NCBI GenBank assembly: GCA_046293175.1
Contig: JBKBPM010000001.1
Coordinates: 102,891-166,890 of the forward strand
Direction: 5' to 3'
Source: Minisyncoccia bacterium
GTDB lineage: Bacteria > Patescibacteriota > Minisyncoccia > Phycocordibacterales > UBA918
DNA length: 64,000 nucleotides
The notes below the pieces were generated by a model. That model saw only the letters and a list, made by a program, of their open reading frames with translations. It was not told the DNA's origin and ran no database searches. Shown here in pieces: positions 27,398 through 53,161 of this stretch (positions are counted from its first letter, which is position 1; each line of letters opens with the position of its first letter). The position numbers and the translations under genes were made by a program.

Positions 27398-27545
27398 ACC
27401 AAAACCAAGGACATCCGATGTCCTTGGTTTTGGTTTAGTATTCTCCCTAGGCAAGGCCTAGGGAGAATACTTCATTTAAATGAAGTATTCGATTTTATAA
27501 AAATGAAGAACCCCCGAATCGCTCCGGGGAGCCTTCGGGGGTTAT
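27397..27545. repeat. Cluster of four consecutive perfect hairpins/palindromes
   Basis: H1 27397-27436: aaaccaaaaccaaggacatc-cg-atgtccttggttttggttt. H2 27437-27467: REP-like ttctccctagg-caagg-cctagggagaa. H3 27463-27484: atacttcatttaaatgaagtat, the same family as the palindromes around 61500-62080. H4 27508-27540: acccccgaa-tcgctccggggagcc-ttcgggggt. Confidence 0.6.
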
Positions 27546-27913
27546 GCTGCGTCATGGAGGCGCCCGCTGTCATCGCAGGGCAGCCAGCCATTCGAAGAAA
27601 GGTATGCCGAGATTTGCTCAGCCAACACTTCGGGCTCGACAATCAGCTTGGTCGCCGCGAGGTCGATCTGCTTGAACCTGACGAAGGGGAACTTGTCGGA
27701 CAAGTCCTCCTCGACCATGTCCATTTCGAGAGCGAGACCGTGGCAGTCGACGTCGCAGGGCAGTCAACACAACGTAAGTATATGGCCCACCTTGGGCTCG
27801 CGAATGAAACTTCCGCGAGCGTTCACGGTGTACACCGTGTTGTCTTCGCTGGTGGGAATGGTGACGAAAAGCACGGATTCGTAGTTCATGTCATACTCCA
27901 TGCCTGGATTTAA
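27503..27913 (-). pseudogene. GC-rich segment carrying a disrupted minus-strand ORF; likely a degraded foreign gene
   Basis: Minus-strand pieces MEYDMNYESVLFVTIPTSEDNTVYTVNARGSFIREPKVGHI...stop (27901..27764) and MDMVEEDLSDKFPFVRF...SSNGWLPCDDSGRLHDAA (27724..27542) sit in different frames. Local GC about 57%. Confidence 0.3.
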
Positions 27914-27980
27914 CTCGTACTACTAAATCAAATTATTACCAAATTGTCATAGTATTATATAGCTTTCCAACATTAATAGC

Positions 27981-28009
27981 TTGCCAAAATCAGAGAAATC
28001 CGTATAATA
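27981..28009 (+). promoter_or_regulatory. Sigma70 promoter upstream of rpoB, with a 160-nt leader
   Basis: TTGCCA-17nt-TATAAT. The leader contains a small hairpin gcacg-gaca-cgtgc followed by TTTTT (28119-28141), a possible attenuator. Confidence 0.5.
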
Positions 28010-28172
28010 CCCCCACAAACGCAATCTCGGGTGAGTTCTGATTGAGAGATGTCGCGGAGGTAAATCACAGTCGTAATGACCATTTTACAAGTGCACCTCT
28101 AACATCCATATAAGTAGCACGGACACGTGCCGCTTTTTGTGTGTTTAAGATGCTAATAAGTTTAAAAACCTT

Positions 28173-31100
28173 ATGAAGTTAAAGTACGAAGACTACGCCT
28201 CAGTTGGTGCGATGGAGCAAAAGACCTTTGCCATCTCACCAGCGCCAATGATTGAAGTGCCGGACCTCATCGAACCACAACGCGATTCGTTTAAGTGGTT
28301 TGTCGAGACAGCGCTTAAGGAGATTTTTACCGAATTTTCTCCAATCACCGACTACTCAGAAAAGAAGTTTGAACTCCGCTTCAAGAAGTACGAGCTTGGT
28401 GAAGCCAAGTGTACTCCTGAGTATGCTAAGGAAAACAAGCTTACCTACGATGCACCGCTTCGTGCCCAGGTGATTTTGAAAAACAAGACTTTTGAATCTG
28501 AGAAGGATCAAGAGATGTTCCTCGCTGATATGCCGATCATGACCGAAAACGGTACCTTCATCATCAATGGTGTGGAGCGTGTTATCGTGCCACAACTCGC
28601 GCGTAGTTACGGTATTTTCTTTACTGCCAACGAAGTAAAGGGTCGCACCCTCTTTGGTGCGAAGATTATCCCAGCCCGTGGTGCTTGGGTAGAAATCGAA
28701 TCAGATGCTGACGGTGTGATTTACGTCAAAATCGATCGTAAGAAGAAGTTTCCAATCTCATCACTGCTCCGTGTCCTTGGTCTTGAGAAAGATAAGGAGA
28801 TTATTGACCTCATGAAGGGAGTAGAGCGTGGTGAAGAATACATGAAGGCAACTATAGCCAAGGATGGAGCGAAGACCACGGATGATTCGTTTATCGAAAT
28901 CTATAAGCGTCTGCGTGATGGTGATCTCGCGACAGTAGAAAACGCCCGTGAATTCGTTCGTTCACTTTTTGCGCCAGAACGATATGACCTTTCAGAAATT
29001 GGTCGTCACCACTTCAATGAGCGGTACGGTCTTCCAACTGATGCAAAGGCGACTGCGGTCCGCACCGTGTCTATCGAGGACATGAAGCTGATCTTGAAGA
29101 ACATCATTGAGATGAATCATGATCCTTTGGCGATGCCAGACGACATCGACCACCTCGGTTTCCGTCGAGTACGCTACTTTGGTGAAATGCTCCAACAGCG
29201 TGTCCGTGTTGGTATGACTCGCATGAAGCGAAACATTCAGGATCGTATGTCAACCATTGAAGCCGAAACCTCACTCCCAATGCAGATCTTGAATCCTCGT
29301 CCACTCCAGGCCGCTATTAAGGAGTTCTTCAGTACGAACCAACTCTCACAATTCTCTCAGCAGCAAAATAATCTCGCTGAAATCGAGCACCTCCGCACAC
29401 TTTCAGCGCTTGGCCCCGGTGGTCTTACCCGTGAACGAGCCGGTTTTGAAGTGCGTGACGTACACACCTCACACTATGGGCGACTTTGTCCAATTCATAC
29501 TCCAGAAGGTCCAAACATCGGTCTTATCTTGCGTCTTTCAATGTACGCCAAGGTTAACCGCTTTGGTATCATCGAAACCCCATACGTGAAGGTAGAAAAG
29601 GGTCGTGTCACTGGTGAAGTGGTATACATGAATGCGCACGAAGAAGAGAAGTACACCATTGCACATGCAGCTATCGAACTCGATAAAGATGGCAAGATTA
29701 AAGACAGGTTCGTTGACGCGCGAAAGCGCGGGGACGCACTCACAGTAAAGCGAGAGGATGTTGAGTATATGGACGTCGCAACCAACCAAGGTTTCTCAAT
29801 TGCAACCTCAATGATTCCATTCCTTAACCACGATGACGCCAACCGTACCCTCATGGGTTCTAACATGCAGAAGCAGGCCACTCCGTGTCTCATCACTGAG
29901 GCGCCGATTGTGGCGACCGGCGTAGAAGGTGTTGCTGCTCGTGACAGTGGACGGGTGGTGTACGCTCTGGAAGCTGGTGAAGTTGTTGAATGTGATGCCA
30001 ATCACATCGTGGTGAAGAACAAAGAAGGAAAGAAGAAGGAGTACCCACTGACGACCCTCCAGCGCACTAACGACTTCTCTGCTTTTTACCACCGTCCAGC
30101 GGTAACGCTTGGTGATAAGGTAAAGCGTGGCGATCTCCTTGCTGATACGACTTCAACTGATCAGGGACAGCTTGCTGTAGGGCAAAACGCTCTTGTGGCC
30201 TTTATGTCATGGAATGGTGCAAACTACGAAGACGCGATTGTTATCTCTGAACGTCTCGTGAAAAATAGTAAGTTTGCGAGCATTCACCTCGATGAGCTCG
30301 AAGTATCGGTTCGTGATACGAAGCTTGGACCAGAGGTTACTACCCCAGACATTCCAAACGTCAGTGAGTTAAAACTCCGCAACCTCGATGAAAACGGTAT
30401 CATTCGCATCGGTGCTGAAGTCCGTCCGGGCGACATTCTTGTTGGTAAGGTAACGCCAAAGGGTGAAACCCAGCTCACGCCAGAGGAACGACTACTGCGC
30501 AGTATCTTTGGTGAAAAGGCCAAGGATGTGAAAGATACCTCACTTCGTCTTGAGGCGGGCAAGCGTGGACGTGTAATCGGCGTCAAAGTATTCTCACGTG
30601 AGAATGGTGATCAGCTCGAAAGTGGTGTGATCAAGCGAATCCACGTGACTGTTGCTCAGATACGTAATGTATCAGTGGGAGACAAGCTCGCTGGACGTCA
30701 CGGTAACAAGGGCGTTATTTCTCGCATCTTGCCAGAAGAAGATATGCCGTACACCGAAGATGGTCGTCCAATTGATATTCTCCTTACACCACTTGGTGTG
30801 CCATCACGTATGAACCTCGGTCAGATTCTTGAGCTTCACCTTGGTATGGCCGCTGGTACCCTCGGCTATCAAGCCGTTGTGCCTCCATTTGCCGGAGCAA
30901 ATGAAAACCATGTGAAAGCAGAGCTCAAGGCTGCCGGATTCCCTGAAGATGGTAAGATCCAGCTCCGTGATGGGCGTACGGGTGAACGGTTCGCCCAGAA
31001 GACTGCGGTTGGTATCATGTATATCCTCAAGCTTCACCACATGGTGGAAGACAAAATCCACATGCGTTCGATTGGTCCGTACTCACTTATTACCCAGCAG

Positions 31101-31412
31101 CCGCTTGGTGGTAAGGCGCAGATTGGTGGTCAGCGCTTTGGAGAAATGGAAGTGTGGGCACTCCTTGGCTATGGTGCTGCTCACACCCTGCGCGAAATGC
31201 TTACTATCAAGTCTGACGACATTGTCGGTCGTTCGGCCGCCTTTGACGCGATTGTTCGTGGTGAAAAGATTCCGCATCCACATACACCAGCCGCGTTTAA
31301 CGTGCTCGTGAATCAGCTCCGTGGTCTCTCACTCGATGTAAAGCTCGAGAAGGAAGAAGGAGAAGCGCGACCACGCCGCAGTCGAGACGAGTCAATTTAT
31401 GAGACCAATTAA
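28173..31412 (+). CDS. rpoB: DNA-directed RNA polymerase subunit beta
   Basis: 1079 aa with canonical beta-subunit motifs (GRHGNKGV, NMQRQA-like, rifampicin cluster regions). Confidence 0.97.
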   Translation: MKLKYEDYASVGAMEQKTFAISPAPMIEVPDLIEPQRDSFKWFVETALKEIFTEFSPITDYSEKKFELRFKKYELGEAKCTPEYAKENKLTYDAPLRAQVILKNKTFESEKDQEMFLADMPIMTENGTFIINGVERVIVPQLARSYGIFFTANEVKGRTLFGAKIIPARGAWVEIESDADGVIYVKIDRKKKFPISSLLRVLGLEKDKEIIDLMKGVERGEEYMKATIAKDGAKTTDDSFIEIYKRLRDGDLATVENAREFVRSLFAPERYDLSEIGRHHFNERYGLPTDAKATAVRTVSIEDMKLILKNIIEMNHDPLAMPDDIDHLGFRRVRYFGEMLQQRVRVGMTRMKRNIQDRMSTIEAETSLPMQILNPRPLQAAIKEFFSTNQLSQFSQQQNNLAEIEHLRTLSALGPGGLTRERAGFEVRDVHTSHYGRLCPIHTPEGPNIGLILRLSMYAKVNRFGIIETPYVKVEKGRVTGEVVYMNAHEEEKYTIAHAAIELDKDGKIKDRFVDARKRGDALTVKREDVEYMDVATNQGFSIATSMIPFLNHDDANRTLMGSNMQKQATPCLITEAPIVATGVEGVAARDSGRVVYALEAGEVVECDANHIVVKNKEGKKKEYPLTTLQRTNDFSAFYHRPAVTLGDKVKRGDLLADTTSTDQGQLAVGQNALVAFMSWNGANYEDAIVISERLVKNSKFASIHLDELEVSVRDTKLGPEVTTPDIPNVSELKLRNLDENGIIRIGAEVRPGDILVGKVTPKGETQLTPEERLLRSIFGEKAKDVKDTSLRLEAGKRGRVIGVKVFSRENGDQLESGVIKRIHVTVAQIRNVSVGDKLAGRHGNKGVISRILPEEDMPYTEDGRPIDILLTPLGVPSRMNLGQILELHLGMAAGTLGYQAVVPPFAGANENHVKAELKAAGFPEDGKIQLRDGRTGERFAQKTAVGIMYILKLHHMVEDKIHMRSIGPYSLITQQPLGGKAQIGGQRFGEMEVWALLGYGAAHTLREMLTIKSDDIVGRSAAFDAIVRGEKIPHPHTPAAFNVLVNQLRGLSLDVKLEKEEGEARPRRSRDESIYETN

Positions 31413-31427
31413 TCTTTTGTTCTGAAT

Positions 31428-34400
31428 ATGTCTACATTTTCACCAAAGAAGCCGGCCCTCACGCCAAACCAGTTCACAGAGATTGGTCTCAAGCTCGCCT
31501 CACCAGAAACCATTCTTGAATGGTCATACGGCGAGGTGACTAAACCAGAAACCATCAACTACCGCACCCAGCGTCCAGAAAAGCATGGTCTGTTCGACGA
31601 GCGTATCTTTGGACCGGTAGAAGACTACGAATGTAGTTGTAAGAAGTACCGCGGTATTCGCTATAAGGGAATTGTTTGTGAGAAGTGTGGCGTTGAAATC
31701 ACTCGCGCTATCGTGCGGCGTGAACGGATGGGTCACATCGAACTCTGTGTACCAGTGTCACACATCTGGTTTCTCCGTGGTGTGCCAAGTCGTATTGCAC
31801 TCCTGACTGGTATCACTGCGTCTGCTATCGAGAAGGTAGTGTACTTTGCCGGGTATATTGTAACCAAAGTACGTGAGGATGAACGCTCACGTCTCCTTAA
31901 GGAACTTGATACTGAGTTTAAGGTTAAGTACAAGGAACTTCAGAACGAAGATGCTCGTGAGGCACTCAAGGCTCGCATGGAAGATATGAAACGCGAGATT
32001 GAAGGTGTCGCGGTTGGAACAGTACTTGATGAAACAACCTTCCACAAGTTCTCAATAAAGTACTCGACACTTTTTGAGGCGAAGATTGGTGCTGAATCAA
32101 TTTACGAACTCTTTAAGAACCTCGACCTTAATAAACTCCAGGCACAGCTCGAAGGTGAGCGCGAAAAGGCAGGTGCCATGGAGCGAGCGAAGCTCGATAA
32201 GCGTCTCTCACTCGTGAAGGGGATGATCCATGCCGGCGTGAAGCCTGAGTGGATGTTCCTCACTCGTATTCCAGTGATTCCGCCAGCGATTCGTCCAATG
32301 GTAGCACTCGAAGGTGGTCGTCATGCCTCTTCTGACCTCAACGACCTCTACCGTCGCGTGATCAACCGAAACAATCGTTTAAAGAAGCTTATTGATATTA
32401 TGGCACCAGACGTTATCTTGCGTAACGAAAAGCGTATTCTCCAGGAAGCGGTGGATGCTCTTATCGATAACTCGATTCGTCACGGCAATGCTGCCTACTC
32501 AGCGCTTGGTCAGGCGCAGCGTCGTCCACTGAAGTCTCTCTCAGACTACCTCAAGAGTAAGCAAGGATATTTCCGCCAGAACCTCCTTGGTAAGCGTGTC
32601 GACTACTCAGGACGTTCAGTGATTGTGATTGGTCCAGACCTCGCGCTTGACCAGTGTGGTCTGCCGAAGCACATGGCCCTTGAACTCTTCCGTCCATTTG
32701 TGATTGCTGAGCTCCTCAAGCAGGAACTCGCGTACAACATCCGTGGTGCAGGTCGTCTTATCGAAGACGGAGTGCCAGAGGTATGGGCAATTCTTGAAAA
32801 TATCATCAAGAACAAGCATGTACTTCTTAACCGTGCACCGACGCTCCACCGTCAAGGTATTCAGGCGTTTCGTCCGGTCCTTATTGAAGGTAACGCTATC
32901 CAGGTACACCCACTCGTTTGTCGTGCGTTTAACGCTGACTTTGACGGTGACCAGATGGCGGTACACGTACCACTTGGTGAAGAAGCCCAGATGGAAGCCC
33001 AAGAGATTATTTCTGCGAACAAGAATATTCTCAAGCCTGGTTCAAGTGAGCCGGTAGTTTCAGAAAAACTTCTCGATCTCGCGCTTGGTGCCTACTGGAT
33101 GACTAAAGAAGTCCCAGGAGCACTTGGTGAGGGTAAGTTCTTCTCGTCACCAAACGATGCGATCAACGCGTTTGACTACGGCATTATCGATTTCCGCGCC
33201 AAGGTGAAAGTCCTTGCTACGTCAACCGAGAAGTATCAGCAGTTTGAAGGGAAGGTGTTTGAGACTACCGTTGGTCGTCTTCTCTTCAACTCAGTACTGC
33301 CAAGTGATCACGCCTTCGTGAACACTCAGGTGACGCAGAAGATGCTCTTTAAGGTCATTATCGACATCATCGACGAGCGTGGACCAGAAGCGGTGCCAGC
33401 CATTGTCGACAAACTCAAGAAGCTTGGTTTCAAGTATGCAACGGTGTCAGGTACAACTTGGGGCATTGATGAAGTTAAAGTGCCGGAAGGCAAGGCAAAA
33501 ATCATCGAAGAATCTCGTGCCGAAGAACAGAAGGTATTTGCCTTCTATAACGAAGGACTTATCTCGCGTGACGAACGTCGTCGGATGATTGTTGAAATTT
33601 GGCACCGTGCCAAGACTCGTCTTGAAAAGCTCCTTCCTGAAACGCTTGACCACAACGGTTCAGCTTTCGAAATGTGGGACTCTGGTGCTCGAGGTTCACT
33701 TGGACAAATTGCACAGATGGCGGGTATGAAGGGTCTTATCGTGAACACCCGAGGTGAAACTCTCGAGTTCCCAATCCTTTCTTCTATGAAGGAAGGTATG
33801 ACGCCACTGGAGTACTTCAACACGACCCACGGTTCACGTAAGGGTCTTGCCGACACCGCCTTGCAGACTGCGAAGGCTGGCTACCTCACCCGTCGTCTCT
33901 TCGTAGTTGCTCAGGATGCGATTGTGACCGAAGAAGACTGTAAGACGAAGGAAGGAACTCGTATCAGCCGCATTAGTGCTTCAGGTATCGAGATTGCTTT
34001 CAGTAAAGCGATTAAAGGTCGTATTCTCGCCGAGGATGCAGTTGATAGCAAGGGTGCGGTGATTTTCCCGAAGGGACACTTACTCTCACGTCTGGATGCG
34101 ATTGCGGTTGAAGAATCAACTTGTAGCGAAGTGATCGTACGTTCACCAATGACCTGTAAGACACTGCGTGGTGTCTGTCAGAAGTGTTACGGTATTGACC
34201 TTACCACGAACAAGCTTGTTGATATCGGAGAGGCGGTTGGTACCGTGGCAGCCCAAGCGATTGGTGAACCAGGTACCCAGCTCACGATGAACACAAAACA
34301 CGCAGGTGGAGCGGCGTCAGCGGGAGGAGACGTGACCTCAGGTCTTCCACGTGTAGAAGAAGTCTTTGAAAAGCGGGCACCAAAGATTCCGGCCGTGGTC

Positions 34401-35090
34401 TCAAAGTGTGAGGGTGTCGTCGTGGACATTCGTCGCGATGGTCGCGAATCAGTGATTGTGGTTGCTCCAGATATGGGCGCCAAAGGTGCACCAAAGAAGA
34501 AGGAAAACATCGAATATGTAGTGCCATACCGGCGTGTGGTAACGGTTAGTAAGGGTGAGACGGTCCGGGCTGGTCAGATTATGACCGACGGTTCGGCACT
34601 CCTCCCTGAACTCTTCAAGTTTGGCGGTCAAGAAGTGGCTCAGGAATACATCATTTCTGAAGTAAACAAAATCTACGAGCTCCAGGGTGTGACGATTGCG
34701 CGCAAGCACATCGAACTCATCGTGAAGCAGATGATGTCACGCGTGAAGGTGACTGCTCCAGGTGATAGTCACTTCACGGTTGGGGACGTGGTTGAAGAAT
34801 GGATCTTCATTGATACAAACAACAAGCTCAAGGAAGAAGGGAAGGAGAGTGCTAAGGCCGAACGCCTTATCCTCGGTATCACCGAGACCTCGCTCTCTCG
34901 TAAGAGCTTCCTTTCCGCGGCCTCATTCCAGAATACCACTCGCGTACTTATCAACGCTGCCGTAAAGGGTAGTAGCGATAACCTCGCTGGTCTCATGGAA
35001 AACGTGATCATTGGTAAGTTGATTCCAGCGGGATCAGGATTTAAGGGGTCACGCAAGCACACAATGATCGAATCACTCAAGCAGGAGTAG
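31428..35090 (+). CDS. rpoC: DNA-directed RNA polymerase subunit beta'
   Basis: 1220 aa. Zinc-binding CxxC..CxxC, NADFDGD catalytic motif, trigger loop and bridge helix regions. Confidence 0.97.
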
Positions 35091-35238
35091 TCGGCTTCCA
35101 AAACGCACGCATCTGCTTTGTTGGTCGGCAAAAATATTGTTCAATGTGCAATCAGCACACCTCACAATATTTTCCACCGCCCGCCTCGCATCTCCATACG
35201 TTTTGAAACCCTCCGGTAGAGGTAACTGATACAACAAA

Positions 35239-35272
35239 AGCCGGCCCCTTCGGGGCCGGCTTTTGTTGTATT
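35239..35272 (+). terminator. Rho-independent terminator after rpoC
   Basis: aaaagccggccccttcggggccggcttttgttg. Confidence 0.8.
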
Positions 35273-35319
35273 AAAAAAGTAGACCCCCGACCCAGTATTG
35301 CCGGGTCGGGGGGTCGCAG

Positions 35320-35427
35320 TCAGAACTTGCGTCCTGCCTGCTCTTCGTCGGTGATGGGTTGGTTTACGTCCCGCCACATCTTGAGTTCGCGGCGGTACCA
35401 CGAAAGCAGTGCTTGCAGAAATTTCAT
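35320..35427 (-). CDS. Small ORF (35 aa), hypothetical
   Basis: MKFLQALLSWYRRELKMWRDVNQPITDEEQAGRKF. RBS ggaggcg upstream. Its own GC-rich terminator hairpin lies at 35282-35316 (gacccccgacc...ggtcgggggg). Not in the ORF track because it is under 60 aa. Confidence 0.3.
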   Translation of the reverse strand: MKFLQALLSWYRRELKMWRDVNQPITDEEQAGRKF

Positions 35428-35602
35428 TTCGCCTCCATTGCTGCGATAATTATACACATAATAGCGGTTATGTCAATACTACGCGGATGGTTGGATTCAG
35501 GTTCTGGTCGTTGATAGTAAGGCACATGGTAGGGAAGTGGAAAACATAGAACGACCCCCGTGCGCGAAGCGGCGGGGGGTCGTGGGGTGAGGCTTTTCGA
35601 CC

Positions 35603-35776
35603 TCATTCTTGGGGCTTGTTGATGCCCATATGTTCCGCGATAGCCTCGATTTTTTCCGCCATGGTCTTCACATATTTCAGGGTCTCGTAGGCGACCGGGA
35701 TGAAGACGATAATGAAGATAATCAAGGCTGATTTCACAAGGTTACCAAAACCCTGATTTGAACGATGCGACGACAT
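35603..35776 (-). CDS. Small membrane protein (57 aa), hypothetical
   Basis: MSSHRSNQGFGNLVKSALIIFIIVFIPVAYETLKYVKTMAEKIEAIAEHMGINKPQE. RBS gggag. Downstream hairpin cgacccccg...cggggggtcg at 35540-35575. Confidence 0.35.
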   Translation of the reverse strand: MSSHRSNQGFGNLVKSALIIFIIVFIPVAYETLKYVKTMAEKIEAIAEHMGINKPQE

Positions 35777-35899
35777 GCAGTGTGCTCCCGTACTGATTTA
35801 TTATATAATATCACAAAAATATGTATAAGTCAATATATCTATAAAAAAGTGATTTTGGCAATGAAAAACCCCGCCATTTTCAGGTGGGGTAAGGTTCTC

Positions 35900-36560
35900 G
35901 GGCGACGGGGCAGGTATTAGCCGTTTTTGGCCAAGATGGGGCGCCGAATCACGTTGGCCTGCATCCAGCAACCCGCCACGAGTTCTGGAGCCGATAGTTC
36001 CCCCGGATGGAGAGTCAAATCATAGTTGCCCCCGGGCGTCATTAGCGTCAGGGCGATTGATGCTGTTTTTGCCCACTGCGTCACACGGTACCGAAGTCGA
36101 TCTCCTGGCCAGTACCGTCGGAGATCTTTATCGACGTGCCGGCCCTGTAACAGGACAGGCCGGTGGCATTGAAGACTTCCAGGAGCGATGTCGAGTACTC
36201 GAAACGACGGTTGAGTTTCTGCTGGCAGGCCTGATTAATTCTTCGGCCGACTGGCCTTTCTGCTCGCTTGAACGAGCGAACTCGCCAATCACCCCATTTC
36301 GTTTCTGATCCGGATGCCCCCTTCATTGGTGTCCGCCGCCGTCAACCGTCCCGGCCCAGCGATCGCATGATCCGGGGAATGCCAAAAGTAGAGCATCCCT
36401 CCGGTTGCAGTGCAATCGAAGCTGAGCTTCTCTTTCGGCGTTTCGGCGATTGCCGCGTTGGGAAGAGGGTAGAGAGAAGAATAAGTAGGTACCGCATCGG
36501 TAGTCCATTCTGGACAAGTTGGCTACCGTGGACTATATATTACAAACGTCAATGAGTCAA
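35900..36560. pseudogene. GC-rich (about 58%) segment with only fragmented ORFs; probable decayed foreign gene
   Basis: The longest clean reading is a minus-strand frame of about 105 aa ending at 35919 (...HRPVLLQGRHVDKDLRRYWPGDRLRYRVTQWAKTASIALTLMTPGGNYDLTLHPGELSAPELVAGCWMQANVIRRPILAKNG*). It has no start codon. The other frames are broken. Confidence 0.3.
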
Positions 36561-36593
36561 TAGCTCACCAAAAAGTGTTGAATCGGGTATACT

Positions 36594-38360
36594 GTGGCTA
36601 CTTTTATTCTTATGGCCTCGGGTGACTCAGTACAACAAATCAAAGATCGTCTCAACATCCTCGATATAGTCGGGCAATACGTTGAACTCCAGCGAGCCGG
36701 AAAGCACTTCAAAGGTCGCTGTCCTTTTCATAATGAAAAGTCACCGAGCTTCCACGTCTCTCCAGATCGCGGGACGTACCACTGCTTTGGCTGTGGTGTC
36801 GGAGGTGATATCTTCTCCTTTGTACAGGCGATTGATGGAGTGGAGTTCAAGGAAGCACTGAAGACTCTCGCACAAAAGGCCGGTGTCGAACTCGTACCCG
36901 AAAATCCTGAGCGGCGCACAGAGCGTGATACCCTCTACAGTATCCTCGAAGCCGCGACCGCCTTTTATGAAGCCGAACTTGCAAAGAACAGCGAAGCATT
37001 GGCTTATCTTGAAAAGCGGGGAGTAAGCAAAGAGACTATCAAAAAGTGGCGTATCGGTTTTGCACCTGGTCCACCTGTCGGTGGTTGGCGAGAAGTGAAG
37101 AATCATCTGAATACCATTGGACACCCGGATGCGCTCATTATCAAAGCGGGCTTAGCGAAAACTGCTGATCAGGGCAAGGAGCCATTTGATGTATTTCGAG
37201 ACCGGATTATGTTCCCGCTCCGTGATGCCAATGGAAAAGTGGTAGCGTTCTCTGGTCGCATCCTTCATCCTGACGATAAGGCACCGAAGTACGTGAATAG
37301 TCCCGAGACCGAGCTTTTCCATAAATCAGATTTGCTCTATGGGTATGATTTTGCAAAGCATCATATCAGGCAGTTACCATTTTGGCTTTTGGTCGAAGGA
37401 CAGTTTGATGTGGTGATGAGTCACCAATGTGGCTATGCTACGGCAGTAGCTGTATCTGGCACTGCTTTGACCGTACATCACGTACAGCAGCTCGAGCGGC
37501 TCTCTCGTAATGTAGTCTTGGGACTTGATACCGACCAGGCGGGGATTAATGCGATGAAGAAGTCAGCCGATATTATGCTCAGGCGGGGACTGGATGTAAA
37601 AGTAGCGCGCTTTGCCGAAGGAGCCGACCCAGCTGATATGGTGCAAAAGGATCTCGCTGGTTTTAAGACGGCTATCAAGGACTCGGTCCATATCATTGAG
37701 TTTTTGCTTGCACACTTGAGACGTGATATCACGGACGAGCGCGCCTACAAACTCAAAGTACGAGAAGAAGTGATTCCATTTGTAACCCTCATTCCCAATC
37801 GCATTGACCAAGAGCACTTTGAAGGGGTGATAGCGGAAGCGCTCGGTACGACCAAAGATGCAATTCACTTTGAAGTACTGCGACTGATAGACACACAAGC
37901 CAAAACACCAACTGCGAGCTTTGAAAAACCAAAGACACCAAATATGCCACCAGCTGAAACTCGCGACCAGCGCGAGAAGACCCTCGCGTATCTCGTCGCT
38001 GCACTGGCTATTGTGGATGAGCATGAAGCCAATGTCATCCGCCGCTGCCTCAGACAAATACATGATACACAATTCGAGGATGTATTAAGTAGTGTTGATC
38101 AATTGCTTGTCTCAAAACTCACCTTCTCACTTGAGCGAGAATTTGATGCAGTAGCAGGGAAGGTACGGCGGGATGAAATCCTCCACAAGCTCAATCGCTA
38201 CCGTGACCTCGTTTGCAAAGAGGCGATTCAACAACAACGTGCGAAGCTTGGTACAGTATCGAGTGACGAGGAAGCCGTCCTACTGCAGACGATTGCGCAT
38301 TATACGAATCAACTTCGGCGACCTCCTTATGGTGACGACATCTTCTTAAAAACATCGTAA
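36594..38360 (+). CDS. dnaG: DNA primase
   Basis: Zinc ribbon (CPFHNEKSPSFHVSPDRGTYHCFGCGVGGD), RNA polymerase domain and Toprim (LLVEGQFDVV, LGLDTDQAG). Confidence 0.9.
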   Translation: MATFILMASGDSVQQIKDRLNILDIVGQYVELQRAGKHFKGRCPFHNEKSPSFHVSPDRGTYHCFGCGVGGDIFSFVQAIDGVEFKEALKTLAQKAGVELVPENPERRTERDTLYSILEAATAFYEAELAKNSEALAYLEKRGVSKETIKKWRIGFAPGPPVGGWREVKNHLNTIGHPDALIIKAGLAKTADQGKEPFDVFRDRIMFPLRDANGKVVAFSGRILHPDDKAPKYVNSPETELFHKSDLLYGYDFAKHHIRQLPFWLLVEGQFDVVMSHQCGYATAVAVSGTALTVHHVQQLERLSRNVVLGLDTDQAGINAMKKSADIMLRRGLDVKVARFAEGADPADMVQKDLAGFKTAIKDSVHIIEFLLAHLRRDITDERAYKLKVREEVIPFVTLIPNRIDQEHFEGVIAEALGTTKDAIHFEVLRLIDTQAKTPTASFEKPKTPNMPPAETRDQREKTLAYLVAALAIVDEHEANVIRRCLRQIHDTQFEDVLSSVDQLLVSKLTFSLEREFDAVAGKVRRDEILHKLNRYRDLVCKEAIQQQRAKLGTVSSDEEAVLLQTIAHYTNQLRRPPYGDDIFLKTS

Positions 38361-39967: not shown

Positions 39968-39981
39968 TATCAAATATGAAG

Positions 39982-41431: not shown

Positions 41432-41462
41432 AAAATCACGACGATGTCGTGATTTTTTTATA
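41432..41462. terminator. Bidirectional terminator
   Basis: aaaaaatcacgacgatgtcgtgatttttttat. Confidence 0.7.
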
Positions 41463-41468
41463 CTGAGT

Positions 41469-43550
41469 TTACGAATGGCGGACTAATTCTTCTTGCAATG
41501 TTACGTAGAGCTTTGGCGTAATGAGTTGCCGCTCAAAAAGTTCAGTGAGCATCACTTCTTCAATTTTTGATACACCACGGAGAGCAAGGGTATGGGCAAG
41601 TGCTTCGTAGCGAACTTTGTGTCCGATGGCAATTTCCCGCATCTTTTGCTCAGATTGTTCTTTGAAGGTAGTGTAGAGGGCTGTCACATGTTCAAGAGCG
41701 TCTTTGGTGAAAATGTGCGCAGCTTGTTCGGTACCAATATCACCAATCTCTTTTACCACTTTTCGAGAGATAATCGCTTGGGCTCGGTAGTACATAAAGA
41801 GATGGTCGACATCTTCTTCATGGGTTCGAGGACTTACGAGATTACGGATACTGTTGGCAATCCGATCAAAGATATCTTTACCATCGGTGTGAAGAGACAT
41901 GTCGGGTTTGAGGTTGCCTGATTCAATGGCTTCTTGCTGCAATTGCAATTTACCGTACAGGTGTCGGTAGACCGCCTCATCAACCTCATTGTGATGATAT
42001 AGCTCCTTGAGGTGCCGCAGTTCAATACCAATAGCAAACATGCGTAATACTCGCTTTGCGAGTGCTTTAGTATCTGGCGCAGTAAGTTTTTCACAAGCAG
42101 CACGAAAGGCTGTTTCGTGATGCTGAAGAAGGTTTTCTGCTACGGCACTTTCAATGTAACCACGTTCGGCATATCTAGTAATACGTTCGGTGACTTCATG
42201 ATGGATGAGAGCTCTCGCTTCAAGTGATTCGACTTCCTCAATTGGGGTGAGCGTGTCTAGCTTGAGGCGACGCATGAAGTATTGGATAGTTGGCGCCTTT
42301 ATAAACAGTGTCGCGACAATGCATCCAACTGTCAAAGAGAGGAGAAACTCTTTTGGAGAGAGGGGTAGTGTCCAACCAGCAAAGGCAAGATCGTTTGGAA
42401 TGAGGAGCACCATCGTAACCGCGAGCGCACCACGGAGTGACCCCCATGACAGGAGGTGTTGCCACGAGAGCGGAATGTAGCGATCTTTTTGACTGAATAG
42501 GTTATATGTTGATACGACTGGGTAGATAGAGATGGCCCGAGCGATGGCAACGATAATAATCGTCAAAAGTACAATCAATAAGGTGGCAGGTGTCACTGGT
42601 GGCATATTTGCTACCAAGAGACCGATAAGAATGAAGATGAGGGAGTTGGCAATAAAGGCCAGTTCACTCCAGAGCTTCTCAACGAACTCTTCAGCGCGGG
42701 GATGGATTTTGCTACGACCATAATTACCCATGAGAAGAGCGGCCACCGTGGTGGCAATAATTGGTGATAGCGGCAAATGTGTGTCACCGATGTGGAGATG
42801 GTGTGAAGCAATCTCAGCGCCAATAAAAGTGATGTGCGCGAGGGCAATCGTGAGCGTGATGCTCGCTACCTCGTTTTCACGGGTGAAGCCAATTAATTGA
42901 GCAAAAATACCACCAACCACTACACCAAAGATGACACCTCCAACCATCATCGAGGTAAACGCTATGGTGCCGTCGAGGACAGTGTCAAACCCCTGGTAGC
43001 CGAATCGTGCCACTTCAAGAAGAACTAAAAAGAGTGCCACTGCGGTTGCGTCATTAAAAAGACTCTCACCTTCAAAGATGAGTGACAACCGACGTGGTGC
43101 ACCGTACTCCTTAAAGAGTGCCAGTACCGCCACTGGGTCGGTAGCAGAGATGAGTGCGCCAAAGATAAGGGTTACTATGAACGGTACCCCAAGACCGAGG
43201 AATAAGAGTGCGTAATAGAGGCCGGCTGCGATAATAACAGTTGAAACCAGTAAGCCGACTACTGATAAAATGAGAATAATCCAGGCGTCTTCTACCATGC
43301 GACGAACATTGATGTTGTACGCTGATTCAAAAATGAGTGTCGGTAGAAGGAGGTAAAAAAGTAGTTCTGGGGTGAGTTGAAACTCGCCAAAAAAGTGAAA
43401 GGTTGGTGTATGCGATAAAATGCCGAGAACAAGTCCAACAATTACTAAAAATACGGTATGGGGCAGCTTGACTCGTTTCGCCCAAAAAATAGCGAGACTC
43501 GAGATGGCGAGCATAGCAAAGATGGCGAGTGTAGCGTTGGCAGTAAGCAT
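41469..43550 (-). CDS. Na+/H+ antiporter (CPA1/NhaP-type) with a C-terminal cytoplasmic domain of about 280 aa
   Basis: 693 aa. 10-12 TM helices with the cation/H+ exchanger signature (ATDPVAVLALFKEYGAP, SLFNDATA). Soluble C-terminal domain. Confidence 0.85.
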   Translation of the reverse strand: MLTANATLAIFAMLAISSLAIFWAKRVKLPHTVFLVIVGLVLGILSHTPTFHFFGEFQLTPELLFYLLLPTLIFESAYNINVRRMVEDAWIILILSVVGLLVSTVIIAAGLYYALLFLGLGVPFIVTLIFGALISATDPVAVLALFKEYGAPRRLSLIFEGESLFNDATAVALFLVLLEVARFGYQGFDTVLDGTIAFTSMMVGGVIFGVVVGGIFAQLIGFTRENEVASITLTIALAHITFIGAEIASHHLHIGDTHLPLSPIIATTVAALLMGNYGRSKIHPRAEEFVEKLWSELAFIANSLIFILIGLLVANMPPVTPATLLIVLLTIIIVAIARAISIYPVVSTYNLFSQKDRYIPLSWQHLLSWGSLRGALAVTMVLLIPNDLAFAGWTLPLSPKEFLLSLTVGCIVATLFIKAPTIQYFMRRLKLDTLTPIEEVESLEARALIHHEVTERITRYAERGYIESAVAENLLQHHETAFRAACEKLTAPDTKALAKRVLRMFAIGIELRHLKELYHHNEVDEAVYRHLYGKLQLQQEAIESGNLKPDMSLHTDGKDIFDRIANSIRNLVSPRTHEEDVDHLFMYYRAQAIISRKVVKEIGDIGTEQAAHIFTKDALEHVTALYTTFKEQSEQKMREIAIGHKVRYEALAHTLALRGVSKIEEVMLTELFERQLITPKLYVTLQEELVRHS

Positions 43551-43659
43551 AAAATAACCATTATTTTCTAAAAACAGGTTGACACTATACTCCTCTAGTC
43601 GATTGGCGGCAAGCCCTCACGATGCGTCAAGTGCGAGGTGAAATGGTATACTAGAGTCC

Positions 43660-46600
43660 ATGAAGAATCTCCATGACGATGCCTATCAGACTGCCTACAA
43701 ACGCCTCAATGCCAAGCAAAAGGAAGCGGTAGACGCTATTGAAGGGCCGGTGATGGTGATAGCAGGACCGGGAACAGGTAAGACGCAGATTCTGACGTTG
43801 CGGATTGCGAATATCCTCAGACAAACCCAGATGAATCCGGAAAACATCCTCGCTCTCACGTTTACCAAGTCTGGCGCCAAAGCCATGCGCGAGCGTCTCT
43901 TCCAGTTTATCGGGAACGCTGCCTATCGTGTTTCTATCAATACCTTCCATGGACTGGCCGAACGGCTTATTCGTGAGTATCCTGAAGCGTATACAAAAAT
44001 TATTGGAGGGAAAGCCGTCACCGAAATTGAAAAAATCGACATTATCGAAACGATTCTTGAAGCACCTGACTTGCGACTCCTTCGTCCGACCGGTGCACCT
44101 GAGTTTTATGTAGCGCCACTGTTGTCGATTATCAGTCATATGAAGCAGGAGAATATATCGCCTGATGGTTTGGCAGAACTCATTACGATACAGGAGTGTG
44201 AACTTAAAGCTACTCCTCAGTATCATGAAAAAGGCGCCTACAAAGGTAAAGAGCGTGGTGAATATACAAAAATGGCTGGATATATCGAAAAGCAACGAGC
44301 GCTTCTGGTAGTCTATCGACAGTACGAAACCTTGCTGCGCGAGCGGCAGCGCTACGACTTTGACGACATGATTGTGGAGACGGTGCGCGTGCTTACTCAA
44401 AACGAGACCGTGCGCCTTAATCTCCAAGAAACCTACCAGTATATCTTGGCTGACGAACATCAAGATGTGAACGGTGCCCAAAACGAAATTTTGGTACAAC
44501 TGACCTCCTTTCATGAAAATCCCAATCTCTTTGTGGTAGGTGATGAGAAGCAAGCCATCTACCGTTTTCAAGGCGCCTCTTTGGAGAACTTTCTCCATTT
44601 TGAAAAGTTGTACCCGCAAACCAAAGTGATTGTCTTGACTTCCAACTATCGATCGACTCAGCCAATCCTTGATGTGGCACACGAATTAATTAAGGTAGAG
44701 GAGGGGCCATTGATTGATTACCGTATCGCACTTGAAGCACATACTGATATAGCGACAGCACCAACACTCACTACCTACAGTAACGAGCAACACGAACACG
44801 CAGCACTTTTGGTAAAGATCAGAGCTGCATTAGCTCTAGGTGTTGCACCAAACGATATAGCGGTAATTGTCCGGTCCAACCGTGAAGTTGAAACTATTGC
44901 TGAATTGCTGACGGGAGCTGGTATTGCTGTTGAGGCTAGTGCCGACGCTGATGTCCTTGAACATCCACTCTTTTTGGCAGTAATTGATTTGCTCGAGACC
45001 ATTTTGAACCCTGCTGATATGACACGTCTCACCCGAGTGTTTATGGCGCCGTATTCCGGTGTACCAGCGTCTGATATGGCCCGTATTATGGCCAACCTTT
45101 CTTATGATACACCTTTGGTTGTTCGCCTCGGGGATGAAAAATGGCTTTTGAGTGTTGGTGTTGAAAACATAGCTGCTTGTACACGTCTAGTAACGCTCCT
45201 TGAGGAAATTCGGGGTAAAGTACTCACTGCTCCGCCACATCGGCTTTTAGCTTCACTTTTGACAGAGAGTGGACTCTTTAAGGAGGCATTTGGTGCTCTG
45301 CCGCAAGAGAGTACGAGAGTACTACGACGACTTTATGATGAAGTGGAGGGGTTTGTGCGTAATGGCGAAGCGCTCACGCTGGCTGATGTCGTGCGGCTGT
45401 TGCGTCGGCGAATGGAGTATCGAGTACCGCTTTCAGCGCCATTTGTGTCGGGAGGCGCTGAAGCGGTGCAGGTGATGACTGCTCACAAATCAAAAGGTCT
45501 CGAATTTGATACTGTCTTTATTCCTCATCTTACTGAGGGTAGTTGGGGGAAAGGCAGTCAGGCTGATTACTTCAAGGTGCCACTGGTTGCGACGGCGAGC
45601 CTCAAGCTCGAAGCTAATGAAGACGAACGACGACTCCTCTACGTGGCGATGACACGCGCGAAGCGAGCACTTTCTCTATCGTATGCCGAGCAAAGTAGTG
45701 ATGGTAAGGTACTCATGCCAGCGCCATTTACGGCTAGTATTGGCGAACTGCTGCCAACAATCACCGATGATACAGTCGTCTCTCATGATTCACTACCGTT
45801 GCCAAAAATTGAGTCACCAACCATAACAGTACTGAGGGGTATCCTGCTTCGTTCACTGACTGATCGCGGACTCTCAGCGACGTCACTAAATAACTGCATC
45901 AAAAACCCATGGCAGTACCTCTACCGGAATGTGTTCCATGTACCTGAAGTACAGGCGCTCCCAATGCTCTATGGTACGGCGATGCACGGCGTCCTTGAGA
46001 TGGCAACCAAACACCATACTGTTCATGGTTCACTCCCATCCATAAGCCAGCTCCGCGATGTGCTCATTCGTGAGCTCGGACGTTTACCGTTAAGTACGGT
46101 GGAGTTCAGCGATCTCCTCGAAAAAGGCCAAGAGACACTCGTGGTGTACCGCGAACATCTGGCGGAGACATTGCCACCAGCTTCCAGAGCTGAATTGTCT
46201 GTGAAAGTACTTCTCCCAACAAAACATCCTCAGGTACCATTGTTACCACTGACTGGGAAGCTCGACCGCATTGATCTAAACCCTGACGGTACCGCCTTGC
46301 GAGTAGTTGATTATAAGACCGGCAAGGCCAAGACCCGCAATGATATCGAAGGCAAAACCGCCAAAGCTGATGCCTCGTACCGCCGCCAGCTATCATTTTA
46401 CTCACTCCTCTTATCACTCCATGACGATGAGCGGTATCGAACTGATGAGGGTGTATTGTCATTTATCGAACCTGATAGTAAAGGTCGTATACATGATGAG
46501 TCATATACAAGCGGGGAAGTCGAGCGAGCTGCCTTACTAGAAGAAATTGAAGCAGCTATTGCGACGATTGTCTCTGGTGATTTCTTATACGATGAAGTGC

Positions 46601-50906: not shown

Positions 50907-50947
50907 GCGCTTGATTCTAGGGGAAAAAACGGCCGATAGCAAGCATT

Positions 50948-51511
50948 TTAATCGGCGGCAATTGGCTTATCACCAAGCGATTGGAGTCGTGCATCCATGG
51001 CTGTCTGGATGAGGGATTGTAGTCCGCGTGGGTCAGGCAAAGCTGGTGAGGTGAAGTTGCTTTCGGCGGCACTGGCTGTCTGGGCACGAATGGTGCCAAA
51101 ATTGAGCAAGGTTGGGATAATACCACTAATAGTTACTTTGATATCCTGCATCCGCTCGAGACGGAAGTTACTGACCTTACGATTAAAGAAACTAATCTGT
51201 TCAATCACAATGATACGACGGTCAGTAATGACCCACAGGTCAAGGTAGTAGTGTGTCCATGATACGGTCGCGGCCATCACAGAGAGGAGAAGCCAGGTAC
51301 AAAGCATAAACATAATGACGGCCATATTGTCTGCAAACAGGTTCGCGATATCAAGATTAAATGGGAGATTGAGAAGGGCAATACAACCAATCACTGGCAA
51401 AAAGCCCATCATGACAATTGATAGGAGTTCAACGGTAATGACAAACCAGTGTTTGCGGACGGTACGAAGTACTTGCTCATCAGGTTCAAGTTCAATTTTG
51501 TCGTAAAGCAT
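50948..51511 (-). CDS. Membrane protein with a bacterial PH domain (bPH_2, YdbS/YdbT-like)
   Basis: Two TM helices followed by a PH-like domain (ITDRRIIVIEQISFFNRKVSNFRLERMQDIKV). Start adjusted. Confidence 0.6.
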   Translation of the reverse strand: MLYDKIELEPDEQVLRTVRKHWFVITVELLSIVMMGFLPVIGCIALLNLPFNLDIANLFADNMAVIMFMLCTWLLLSVMAATVSWTHYYLDLWVITDRRIIVIEQISFFNRKVSNFRLERMQDIKVTISGIIPTLLNFGTIRAQTASAAESNFTSPALPDPRGLQSLIQTAMDARLQSLGDKPIAAD

Positions 51512-51512
51512 A

Positions 51513-51731
51513 TTATAAGAAAGCGATACCAGCCATGATGGCAAGGAGTGGTAATGAGAAAACGGCAAAGGCAATGTAGGTCTGCGCCGTCACGGTTGCT
51601 GATATTGAATAGTTTTGCCAGTGATAAAATAGGATGGCACTAAAAATCGCGTAGACGATAGCCGTGAGGTAAAACCCGATTTGGAGGAGGGGAGTAATAG
51701 AGAAAGCTTCCATACGTTTATTCTGCCACAA
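51513..51731 (-). CDS. Small 2-TM membrane protein
   Basis: 72 aa, hydrophobic. Co-oriented between prmC and the PH-domain gene. Confidence 0.4.
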   Translation of the reverse strand: MWQNKRMEAFSITPLLQIGFYLTAIVYAIFSAILFYHWQNYSISATVTAQTYIAFAVFSLPLLAIMAGIAFL

Positions 51732-52530
51732 GAGGCTTCATGATGCTATAGCGGTATGTGTCGTATTGGTCCTGGTGGTGGGTGACCGCAAGGTGGTGCT
51801 CTGCGGCCAGAGTAGCGATGGCTTCGCACTGAAAGGGTTCGTGTTCAATCCAAAGCTGACCGTTTGGTGTGAGGTAAGTAGAAGCTTCAGCAATAATACG
51901 AGCAATAATCTCCATGCCACCGACTCCACCAAAGAGAGCAAGCGCCGGTTCGTGTGCAACGACCGAGTCCTCGACAGTGTCTGCTGCTTTATCAATATAG
52001 GGAGGATTGGTGAGAATAAAATCAAACGTACCAGTCGCGTTTGCAAATAGGTCACTTTGAACACAGTGGTAGTACCCCAACCGATTGGGGTACTCGGTGA
52101 TATTCGCAGTGAGATTCTTTGTGATGGTGGGGAGGTGATTTTGGTCAATTTCAGCAAAAGTGACCATTGCTTCAGGAGTAGCTTTGGCGACCGCGACCCC
52201 AATTGCGCCACTACCAGCGCAGAGGTCGAGGATTTTAGGGGTCCGACCCCGAGACTCTAAGTTCGAGGCAAGACCTCGTATTACCAGGTCTTGCCTTAAA
52301 CTTCTGGACCTGATTTCTGTAATCGCTTGCTCGACCCAGTACTCAGTCTCTGGGCGGGGGATGAGCGGGTGGGAATCAAGCGAGATCTGGCAGTCAAGAA
52401 AGGGAATCGAACCGATGAGGTAAGCCAGCGGTTCACCAGCTTCGAGCCGGGCACAGTCGGCGAAAAAAGCGTCGCTTTTTTCGCCGTGATATTTCTCCTT
52501 AAGGAGCCACTCGATTTCTTGATTTTTCAT
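51718..52530 (-). CDS. prmC: Release factor glutamine methyltransferase
   Basis: NPPY motif (FDFILTNPPYI) and SAM-binding motif I (ILDLCAGSGAIG). Confidence 0.85.
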   Translation of the reverse strand: MKNQEIEWLLKEKYHGEKSDAFFADCARLEAGEPLAYLIGSIPFLDCQISLDSHPLIPRPETEYWVEQAITEIRSRSLRQDLVIRGLASNLESRGRTPKILDLCAGSGAIGVAVAKATPEAMVTFAEIDQNHLPTITKNLTANITEYPNRLGYYHCVQSDLFANATGTFDFILTNPPYIDKAADTVEDSVVAHEPALALFGGVGGMEIIARIIAEASTYLTPNGQLWIEHEPFQCEAIATLAAEHHLAVTHHQDQYDTYRYSIMKPLVAE

Positions 52531-53161
52531 GAAATTTATGGCATGGTACTACACGGAAGCTTGGAAAACAAGCATGCATTTTGGCATAGGGAGCCACAAC
52601 ATGACCGATACGAAATTTGTTGAATCGACCTGCGCTTTGAAGCATGTCGTGCTTACCAGTGAGGGCGTATTGGAGCAAATAGCCGGGTCGAGACTGGCTG
52701 CTTTCGTGGCCGAGATTAATGCTCATTAGGAGCAACTTCGTCAGGCCTGTCTCGGCTACCGTGCATCGATTCCGGAACGTCCGACTGAGGAGAAGTTCTA
52801 TGAGCTCGTCGATCTCCTGCGTGAAATGACCTACAGTTTCCACCCCTCACGGATGAATACCCAGCTCCTTGAAGCATCGACATTTATGAGTTGGAGAGAG
52901 CGCTCTAAAGCACCGACGCTGACGACACGGCGCAACATCATGCTCGTCCTTCTTGATGATGCTATGGAGAAGGCAATTCTATCGGGCGTTAAAGTTTTGC
53001 GCGAAATGCTGCGCAACCACGATGGTTCTTCCTTCCCCGTGAGCTGGTGCCTGGGGCCGCTGAAGATGACAACCTAATGAAGGAGGGGAAAAAGATAGGG
53101 GTGGTGCTTCGGCGCCGCCCTTTCTACGTATACGGAGGGCAAATCTGCTATACTACTGCCT

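Follow-up and report, generated by a model that had tools for sequence, protein, structure and literature searches.

How GC-rich stretches with broken or orphan open reading frames (ORFs) come to lie between essential genes is the question raised by the 64-kb stretch of DNA analyzed here (henceforth, the window), part of a metagenome-assembled genome (MAG) of a Candidatus Paceibacteria bacterium from the candidate phyla radiation (CPR). The genomes of CPR bacteria, or Patescibacteria, are usually described as streamlined and gene-dense. An initial annotation had proposed that several islets of 55-58% GC in the window represent foreign high-GC DNA that is now decaying. The analysis presented here points to a likely answer of a different kind, namely, the rapid turnover (acquisition, exchange and loss) of small accessory genes that are self-contained and led by Shine-Dalgarno (SD) motifs, at a few permissive slots within a rigidly syntenic core. 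The variability of these slots, their boundaries, their composition, the contrast in SD motifs and the gene disruptions were each observed directly, as described below.

The best match to the RpoC of the window in a set of species-representative genomes was just 65% identical; much closer relatives were found in metagenomes. The RpoC, RpoD and DnaG proteins of the loci designated L167, L168, L169/L170, L171 and L172 are, respectively, 94-96%, 98-99% and 73-94% identical to those of the window, with rpoBC nucleotide identity to close relatives being about 84%. In about 12 relatives, the gene order trmD-rpoB-rpoC-dnaG-rpoD...addA is conserved and three gaps vary in length. These are the trmD-rpoB gap (776 bp in the window; 278-2013 bp in relatives), the rpoC-dnaG gap (1503 bp in the window; 52-270 bp in most relatives, including 82 bp in L083) and the rpoD-addA gap (3693 bp in the window; 686-1904 bp in relatives). 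In nucleotide alignments with close relatives, positions 27545-27979, 35275-36556 and 39968-40633 of the window are replaced by unrelated DNA or by none. Slot A (between trmD and rpoB), slot B (between rpoC and dnaG) and slot C (between rpoD and the gene beginning at 40658) thus differ by presence, absence or replacement between close relatives, while being flanked by conserved core sequence. The edges of the slots correspond to the terminator of one core neighbor and the promoter of the other, both conserved. Across the relatives, the slot proteins include two homologous pairs and are otherwise mutually unrelated, with none matching an ORF of the window.

The composition of the window was next considered. 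Overall GC content is 48.4%, with 200-bp windows averaging 0.484 (s.d. 0.046). When a GC-rich run was defined as at least 0.56 GC over at least 300 bp in non-core DNA, such runs appeared at 3301-3700 and 3751-4300 (0.57-0.58 GC, with a peak of 0.675), 27501-27850 (0.58), 35851-36500 (0.569) and 40101-40350 (0.576). Because ordinary intergenic gaps of the window have a GC content of 0.33-0.44, these four stretches are clear outliers for non-core DNA; peaks of 200-300 bp with at least 0.56 GC also occur within core genes, where about a dozen were seen. The islets initially described as being of 55-58% GC are indeed present as four stretches of 57-58%, whereas two further items, near 52.7 kb (52529-53077, 0.51 GC) and 10.1 kb (10098-10454, 0.49 GC), are not GC-rich. 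The islets at 3.4, 27.5, 35.9 and 40.0 kb, with a GC content of 0.55-0.65 and a GC content at third codon positions (GC3) of 0.56-0.76, deviate from the host, whose core genes present a GC3 of 0.479 +/- 0.064. The items at 10.1 and 52.6 kb show no such deviation.

The islet genes also differ from core genes in their translation-initiation signals. With an SD motif defined as GGAG, GAGG or AGGA within the 18 nt preceding the start codon, such a motif was found in seven of eight islet genes but only one of 41 core genes (Fisher p=7e-7); the eighth islet gene is preceded by AAGGTGG. The same contrast was seen in L169 and L172, where the motif precedes 8/15 slot genes and 0/21 core genes. By comparison, scanning the entire window for the combination of SD motif, start codon and ORF was not discriminating, with the density of hits being equal in core and non-core DNA. 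At least 12 of the 41 core genes instead have a TATACT/TACAAT-like -10 box positioned just 4-14 nt upstream of the ATG, a spacing suggesting that leaderless mRNAs are common among core genes of this Paceibacteria genome. Examples of core genes with this arrangement are those at 13778(-), 14286, 18478, 40658, 43660, 53162, 55017 and 62926(-), and the same start-proximal pattern was noted in core genes of L169 and L172. A 128-aa ORF at 63066-63452(-), with a GC3 of 0.56 and a signal peptide-like N-terminus, is the one gene assigned to the core set that shows a strong SD motif, GGAGG being located 7 nt upstream of its ATG; this may be another accessory gene of the islet type. In about half of the Parcubacteria, the anti-SD motif has been reported to be absent from 16S rRNA (PMC9297842). 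That islet genes are SD-led while core genes are not provides a simple sequence-based marker of recent gene acquisition in these lineages, and raises the question of whether a host possibly lacking the anti-SD sequence can translate SD-led genes.

Slot A illustrates how precisely variable and conserved DNA meet (coordinates of this and other features are given in Table 1). The terminator hairpin at its left edge lies within 47 bp (27498-27544) that are identical in L169, with just one longer identical run existing in the approximately 20 kb aligned, and its stem is kept in L172 as well. Homology to L169 extends through trmD and the hairpin as far as the stop codon (27542-27544), beyond which it disappears until the rpoB promoter at about 27980. 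Between these points, the window contains a gene termed islet gene 1, L169/L170 contain a 159-aa MarR-family gene and L172 contains a 111-aa orphan. All three genes, although unrelated, are found on the minus strand with their stop codons abutting the same hairpin. The possibility that this terminator serves as a recombination site was entertained but dropped, as an identical run of 53 bp exists within rpoB and other terminators are conserved too.

Islet gene 1 had initially been described as two out-of-frame halves of a minus-strand gene at 27503-27913. A minus-strand gene is indeed found here; its halves, however, share one frame and are split by a single TGA codon. GC3 is 0.71 before the TGA and 0.80 after it, in the same frame, such that both halves are coding sequence of atypical composition. 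The TGA lies within the sequence C-*-LPCD, while near the C-terminus the sequence G-W-LPCD appears, in which W is encoded by TGG; the two sites share the DNA 14-mer TGNCTGCCCTGCGA. Islet gene 1 is thus probably an orphan gene bearing a nonsense mutation, with TGG to TGA being the simplest reading. GGAG is found 8 nt upstream of the ATG. A 136-aa plus-strand ORF overlapping islet gene 1, as reported by the gene caller, has its start within the terminator hairpin and is likely spurious. To the right of the slot, the window, L169 and L172 share an almost identical 5' leader of rpoB (27990-28172, about 180 nt), which could not be aligned in more distant relatives. At the end of this leader, directly upstream of the ATG, a hairpin (28117-28130) precedes a T-run, an arrangement that could be an attenuator; no Rfam match to the leader was obtained and its overall fold is no more stable than those of shuffled sequences (z -0.54).

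In slot B, the rpoC terminator is kept in L167 and L169, with sequences being conserved to about 35274 and diverging beyond. At the other edge, the dnaG promoter region is conserved and dnaG most likely begins at ATG 36612, as judged from alignment with L167, L168 and L169. The 1282-bp interior, in which the initial annotation had correctly recognized GC-rich terminators, two tiny ORFs and a start-less 105-codon frame (35280-36560), could be further resolved into three transcription units, all on the minus strand and each running from a sigma70-like promoter to a terminator comprising a hairpin and U-run. A long hydrophobic stretch suggests that the 57-aa product of unit B2, for which no family match was found in the libraries searched, could span the membrane once. 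In unit B3, the open segments lie in frames 2, 0 and 2, with the first shift occurring at a GGGG run. The phase showing maximal GC3 switches at about 36260 and about 36050, where the frames change, and does so independently of stop codons. Because these switches match the open segments, unit B3 is considered to contain real coding sequence disrupted by at least two frameshifts, with the start-less 105-codon frame corresponding to the 3' part of a gene of roughly 200 codons.

The same slot contains an acidic 86-aa ORF within 530 bp in L167, membrane ORFs of 81 and 72 aa in L171, a Trp-repressor-like helix-turn-helix (HTH) gene and a 132-aa ORF in L168, a 58-aa ORF in L169, and an HTH gene with a 73-aa ORF in L172, and is empty in L083. 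In the more distant relative L085, slot B contains a 138-aa ORF (9358-9774, plus strand) that, by eye, resembles a PemK/MazF-type toxin (...GYEQDGKNENFERPLLIV...).

Slot C of the window contains an intact gene, islet gene 3 (39996-40511), whereas in the four nearest relatives for which data exist, the slot measures 57-230 bp and contains no gene. In the more distant L163, L164 and L165, homologues are found at the same place and in the same orientation, where they are 32-35% identical to the window protein, as compared to 72-100% for the products of neighboring genes; such divergence beyond that of the neighbors implies either very fast evolution or the exchange of distant alleles at the slot. 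An exhaustive HMMER search of 1.84 billion representatives revealed six full-length relatives of 152-171 aa, sharing 27-39% identity. In this family of seven, R19, R22, G86, H92, P93, F104, Y131 and D135-G-L-P138 are invariant. Three of the six relatives could be placed, all in contigs with the same gene neighborhood; the other three could not. The small genes that follow rpoD in L082 and L083 were not picked up by the family profile.

The islet gene 3 product had initially been considered as the remnant of a phosphoesterase with substituted metal ligands. The presence of full-length homologues at the same position in three genomes argues against remnant status, and neither family nor fold comparisons support a phosphoesterase assignment. 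There was no Pfam match at E values up to 1, a profile search of PDB sequences yielded no E value better than 0.64 and a phosphoesterase fold was not recovered, such that likeness to calcineurin-like metallophosphoesterases is limited to the H-P-D tripeptide in WLHPDAK. Likewise, no match to Pfam, NCBI-style, PHROG, PADLOC or PDB-sequence entries was obtained. AlphaFold2 modeling from the seven-sequence alignment yielded a predicted local distance difference test score (pLDDT) of 80.7 and a predicted template modeling score (pTM) of 0.75; a model based on the single sequence was unusable (pLDDT 38). Foldseek found nothing significant in the PDB with the former model. The protein is thus an intact, conserved yet rare accessory protein with a probable winged-helix-like domain at its N-terminus. 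It differs from winged-helix regulators of the MarR, PadR and SarA-like types in showing no sequence-family match and in carrying a beta-rich, uncharacterized C-terminal domain, for which no structural relative was detected and which bears the invariant HP...Y..DGLP. The family is thus rare and fast-diverging, found beside a sigma-factor gene wherever it could be placed, and is a candidate regulator in light of the winged-helix-like domain predicted.

Further islets were found outside these slots. The two intact genes of the 3.4-kb islet each have a promoter of the form TTGACAAATAC...TGATA..ATA, together with AGGAG as ribosome-binding site; their products look to be secreted proteins, as suggested by signal-like N-terminal sequences, although matching LPAM and TAT_signal only weakly, below cut-offs. 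For the 52.6-kb item, the initial annotation had noted a 116-codon open frame at 52729-53077 lacking a start. The open frame exists, following an in-frame TAG, yet contains an ATG at 52826, while GGGAG lies 6 nt before an earlier ATG at 52601. This frame is either a nonsense-disrupted gene or an 83-aa gene beginning at ATG 52826; no homologues were found in a protein-cluster search. The 10.1-kb frame, preceded by AGGAGG at ATG 10454 and presenting a further ATG at 10331, is similarly either a disrupted gene or two small genes. The TGAATTCTT repeats said to flank an ORF at 10080-10340 do exist, at 10175 and 10337, but do not flank the ORF, as one copy is internal to the frame and the second overlaps the TAA. 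Two copies of TGAATTCTT per window are not unusual, being reached in 22/100 shuffles. In both frames, the segments beyond the stop (116 codons past the TAG; 81 codons past the TAA) show coding-like GC1/GC2/GC3 values, i.e., GC content at each of the three codon positions. All three putative nonsense changes (TGG to TGA, CAG to TAG and CAA to TAA) fit G-to-A/C-to-T transitions, with internal support existing for TGG to TGA only. Because no intact homologue was found with which to compare these frames, their status as pseudogenes was judged on internal evidence, which is strong for 27542-27889 and 35917-36522 and weak for the TAG and TAA cases.

In the reading favored here, a slot is delimited by a core terminator hairpin on one side and a core promoter on the other, and the units residing there, each with its own sigma70-type promoter, SD site, ORF and hairpin terminator, are gained, replaced and lost quickly. 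These residents, GC3-rich, SD-led and almost without homologues, would come from another gene pool, with other Patescibacteria, their phages or mobile DNA being the most likely sources, and would probably enter by recombination in the conserved flanks. Those residents that are intact, namely, the 39996-40511 protein, the two tiny proteins of slot B and the two putative secreted proteins, are probably expressed, while others appear to have been recently inactivated by the TGG to TGA nonsense change or by frameshifts. Such a mix of intact and broken genes would fit weak or transient selection, together with a GC-to-AT mutation bias acting on GC-rich DNA. The foreign origin, entry route and expression of the islet genes are what we infer here. 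Genomic islands and transferred genes have been reported to account for up to 13% of genome length in Patescibacteria, with most transfers occurring within the phylum (PMC12455944).

Several points weigh against this reading. No donor or intact homologue was found for eight of the nine islet ORFs, i.e., all but 39996-40511. Concatenated queries of islet ORFs returned no match among 5.8 billion protein clusters, tblastn searches of phage and plasmid records and of more than 160 loci were equally without match, two islet ORFs had no match among viral contigs, and comparison to Pfam, PHROGs, PADLOC and PDB sequences yielded nothing significant. None of the slots is marked by an integrase, a transposase, a tRNA gene or a duplicated target site, family-library scans found no mobility domains in the islet ORFs and a repeat search found no flanking repeats. 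The slot contents of relatives are mostly not GC-rich, and the comparison with close relatives covers slots A, B and C. As to the SD motif, the start at 52601 was chosen partly on that basis; without this gene, the count is 6/7. Lastly, the TAG (52727) and the TAA (10344) could each simply separate two adjacent genes, and between the TAG and the first ATG, only 32 codons are open, a length with an estimated chance probability of about 0.25. Because no donor was found, it is composition, initiation signals and patchy distribution that argue for the foreign origin initially proposed; what was upheld is that the islet genes are lineage-specific, atypical in composition and SD signals, and flanked by core genes, whereas the high-GC donor was not found. 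The slot-B genes of L171 (1556-2137) are GC3-rich (0.71 and 0.75, as compared to a GC content of 0.50 for the locus), such that GC-rich slot content is not unique to the genome of the window.

The view that all of the islets are non-functional, eroding remnants of high-GC foreign DNA draws on the four islets at 57-58% GC, on the in-frame TGA, the frameshifted gene of about 200 codons and the in-frame TAG and TAA, as well as on most islet ORFs having no homologues. Decay is indeed convincing for the gene with the TGA at 27764 and for 35917-36522. Five of the nine islet ORFs (3385-3606, 3798-4289, 35320-35427, 35603-35776 and 39996-40511) are, however, intact and equipped with consensus promoters (one matching at 12/12 positions), SD sites and terminators, with 39996-40511 having six full-length homologues, invariant motifs and a confidently predicted fold. 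Moreover, two of the items listed are not GC-rich and no high-GC donor was identified, making erosion of all islets improbable. Were the islet genes instead native and fast-evolving, with GC3 raised by GC-biased gene conversion at hot spots of recombination or by selection on small genes, and slot contents differing through divergence past recognition and differential loss, one could understand why the placed homologues of 39996-40511 occur solely in contigs with this neighborhood (three of six being unplaced), why those in the same slot share 32-35% identity when neighbors share 72-100%, and, given the highly conserved flanks, how homologous recombination could act. Yet slot A is occupied in L169 by a genuine regulator of the MarR family, and in the window and L172 by unrelated orphans; such genes cannot be diverged orthologues. 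In addition, the SD-led initiation signals are qualitatively unlike those of core genes and the 39996-40511 gene is absent altogether from the four nearest relatives. A native origin is, therefore, also unlikely.

Inserts, stops and frameshifts could also reflect chimeric assembly or sequencing errors, in that the source is a MAG and one frameshift lies at a GGGG run. Logan contigs of SRR31360863 are, however, 100% identical to the window over 26672-37397 and 39886-45574 (10.7 kb and 5.7 kb) and reproduce the TGA as well as the two frameshifts, such that the in-frame stop at 27764 and the slot B frameshifts are not the error of one assembler; the Logan and MAG assemblies may share reads, making this check not fully independent. 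The same genome is, moreover, found on both flanks of the inserts, every insert comes with a promoter, a ribosome-binding site and a terminator that match, and in-frame stops are atypical of assembly error. Artefact thus appears very improbable. Equally hard to credit is programmed recoding, whereby TGA would be read as tryptophan or selenocysteine, or stops would be read through, leaving the genes unbroken. This explanation finds some encouragement in the alignment of the TGA with the TGG of the internal WLPCD repeat and in the flanking cysteines, and some low-level natural UGA read-through may occur. By contrast, each of the three stop codons ends some of the core genes (TAA 24, TAG 13 and TGA 4 of 41), RpoB and RpoC are of the same length as in relatives under the standard code (table 11), the three interrupted genes contain three different stop codons and no tRNA-Sec gene was found in the window.

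A more elaborate proposal, in which this SD-less and largely leaderless lineage would keep the slots as dedicated 'docking' positions, set between a conserved terminator hairpin and a conserved promoter, where unrelated SD-led genes are exchanged precisely at the stop codon under a translation-initiation quarantine for foreign genes, was also considered. With the anti-SD interaction possibly absent from, or hardly used by, the host, translation of incoming SD-led genes would be poor, such that these genes would be both tolerated beside essential operons and subject to rapid decay. This idea remains doubtful.

Relative to known systems, the fast turnover favored above resembles flexible genomic islets and hot spots of horizontal gene transfer, including the Patescibacteria islands (PMC12455944), in that presence, absence and replacement occur at fixed, core-flanked positions, composition is atypical, orphan genes are enriched, and intact and decaying genes are mixed. 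At the same time, the islets of the window are very small, being 0.4-1.3 kb with one to three genes each, contain no integrase, tRNA gene, insertion sequence or direct repeat, have edges coinciding with a core-gene terminator and a core-gene promoter, and contain residents that differ from host genes in translation-initiation signals. As in integron cassette arrays, small single-gene units with a hairpin element are swapped at a fixed site and the boundary between variable and conserved sequence falls right at the stop codon. Unlike integron cassettes, the units seen here carry their own promoters and lie antisense to the flanking operon. Similarly, while attC travels with its cassette, the hairpin here is a backbone terminator that stays identical as the ORF changes. 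An integron-like mechanism is thus not supported, considering the separate promoters, the constant hairpin, the lack of an integrase in the window and the 47-bp identity being outdone by the 53-bp run in rpoB. The accessory-gene hot spot described is real yet of an ordinary type, here resolved in exceptionally fine detail in a CPR genome, and provides a base-pair-resolved case of accessory turnover in a streamlined genome, involving cassettes of one to three genes by rpoBC, dnaG and rpoD.

Table 1. Positions of islet genes, slot edges and neighboring core genes in the window.
Feature	Position	Strand	Details
3.3-4.3 kb island	3385-4289	+	two intact genes
Lipoprotein-like ORF, 73 aa	3385-3606	+	GC 0.65, GC3 0.68
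ORF with twin-arginine-like signal, 163 aa	3798-4289	+	GC 0.58, GC3 0.63
10.1-kb open frame	10098-10454	-	36 codons, in-frame TAA 10344-10346, then 81 codons; between thrS and dnaE
trmD	26711-27397		
Slot A left edge, intrinsic terminator hairpin	27509-27543	-	-23.4 kcal/mol, z -3.55, followed by U-run
Islet gene 1	27542-27889	-	115 codons, one frame, single in-frame TGA 27764-27766
Islet gene 1, 5' region and promoter DNA	27890-27979	-	gene-specific, from alignments and promoter scan
rpoB promoter	27981-28008		TTGCCA-16-TATAAT; homology to relatives resumes here
rpoB	28173-31412		
rpoC	31428-35090		
Slot B left edge, rpoC terminator hairpin	35229-35271	+	20-bp perfect inverted repeat
Unit B1	35284-35476	-	promoter 35476-35449, TTGACA-16-TATAAT, 12/12 matches
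Unit B1 terminator	35284-35312	-	fold z -5.17
Unit B1 ORF, 35 aa	35320-35427	-	GGAGG 4 nt before ATG
Unit B2	35551-35833	-	promoter 35833-35805, terminator 35551-35583
Unit B2 ORF, 57 aa	35603-35776	-	GGGAG before ATG, GC3 0.62
Unit B3	35868-36560	-	promoter 36560-36532, terminator 35868-35890, GC 0.569
Unit B3 pseudogene, about 200 codons	35917-36522	-	at least 2 frameshifts, no usable start
Slot B right edge, dnaG promoter region	36557-36611	+	conserved relative to L167, L168 and L169
dnaG	36594/36612-38360		
rpoD	38546-39967		
Islet gene 3	39996-40511	-	intact, 171 aa
257-aa membrane protein gene	40658-41431		
52.6-kb open frame	52601-53077	+	42 codons, in-frame TAG 52727-52729, then 116 codons

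The remainder of the window comprises a core array that begins with gyrB', sortase, thrS, dnaE, RNase HII, L32 and nusB and that continues, beyond the gene at 40658, with genes for a Na+/H+ exchanger, an AddA-like helicase-nuclease, DsbA, BacA, hisS, an ABC transporter and an aldolase. No tRNA genes and no Rfam matches were found within the 64 kb, islets included. The N-terminal part of rpoD (38579-38868) contains tandem-like repeats of 15 to 105 nt, rich in AAAAAGT and encoding Lys/Ala/Val-rich protein repeats, while an unannotated 696-aa ORF (4394-6484) includes a 153-nt repeat within 5150-5551, with copies 249 bp apart.

Two palindrome families were also noted. Hairpins with the core TCCCTAGGCAAGGCCTAGGGA are found just after gene ends at 2445-2489, 9918-9975 and 27436-27472. 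This core was matched five times, as compared to 0.06 expected, with fold z-scores of -8.6 and -12.1. The outer stems differ between copies yet still pair, and the hairpins could be terminator-like or akin to repetitive extragenic palindromes (REP). The second family, AATACTCCATTTAAATGGAGTATT, appears at 27464-27491, 61485-61512, 61922-61949 and 62044-62071. Three copies bracket an AT-rich segment (36% GC) containing a Trp-repressor-like HTH gene (61511-61933, minus strand), to which the HTH genes in slot B of L168 and L172 are distantly related (30% identity over 54 aa); the fourth adjoins the slot A islet. These palindromes may be operators or cassette ends. Finally, two unrelated genes on the plus strand are each followed by a copy of a 62-nt direct repeat (21865-21926 and 56066-56127; 71% identity), which contains a hairpin and could be a common terminator or a small RNA motif.

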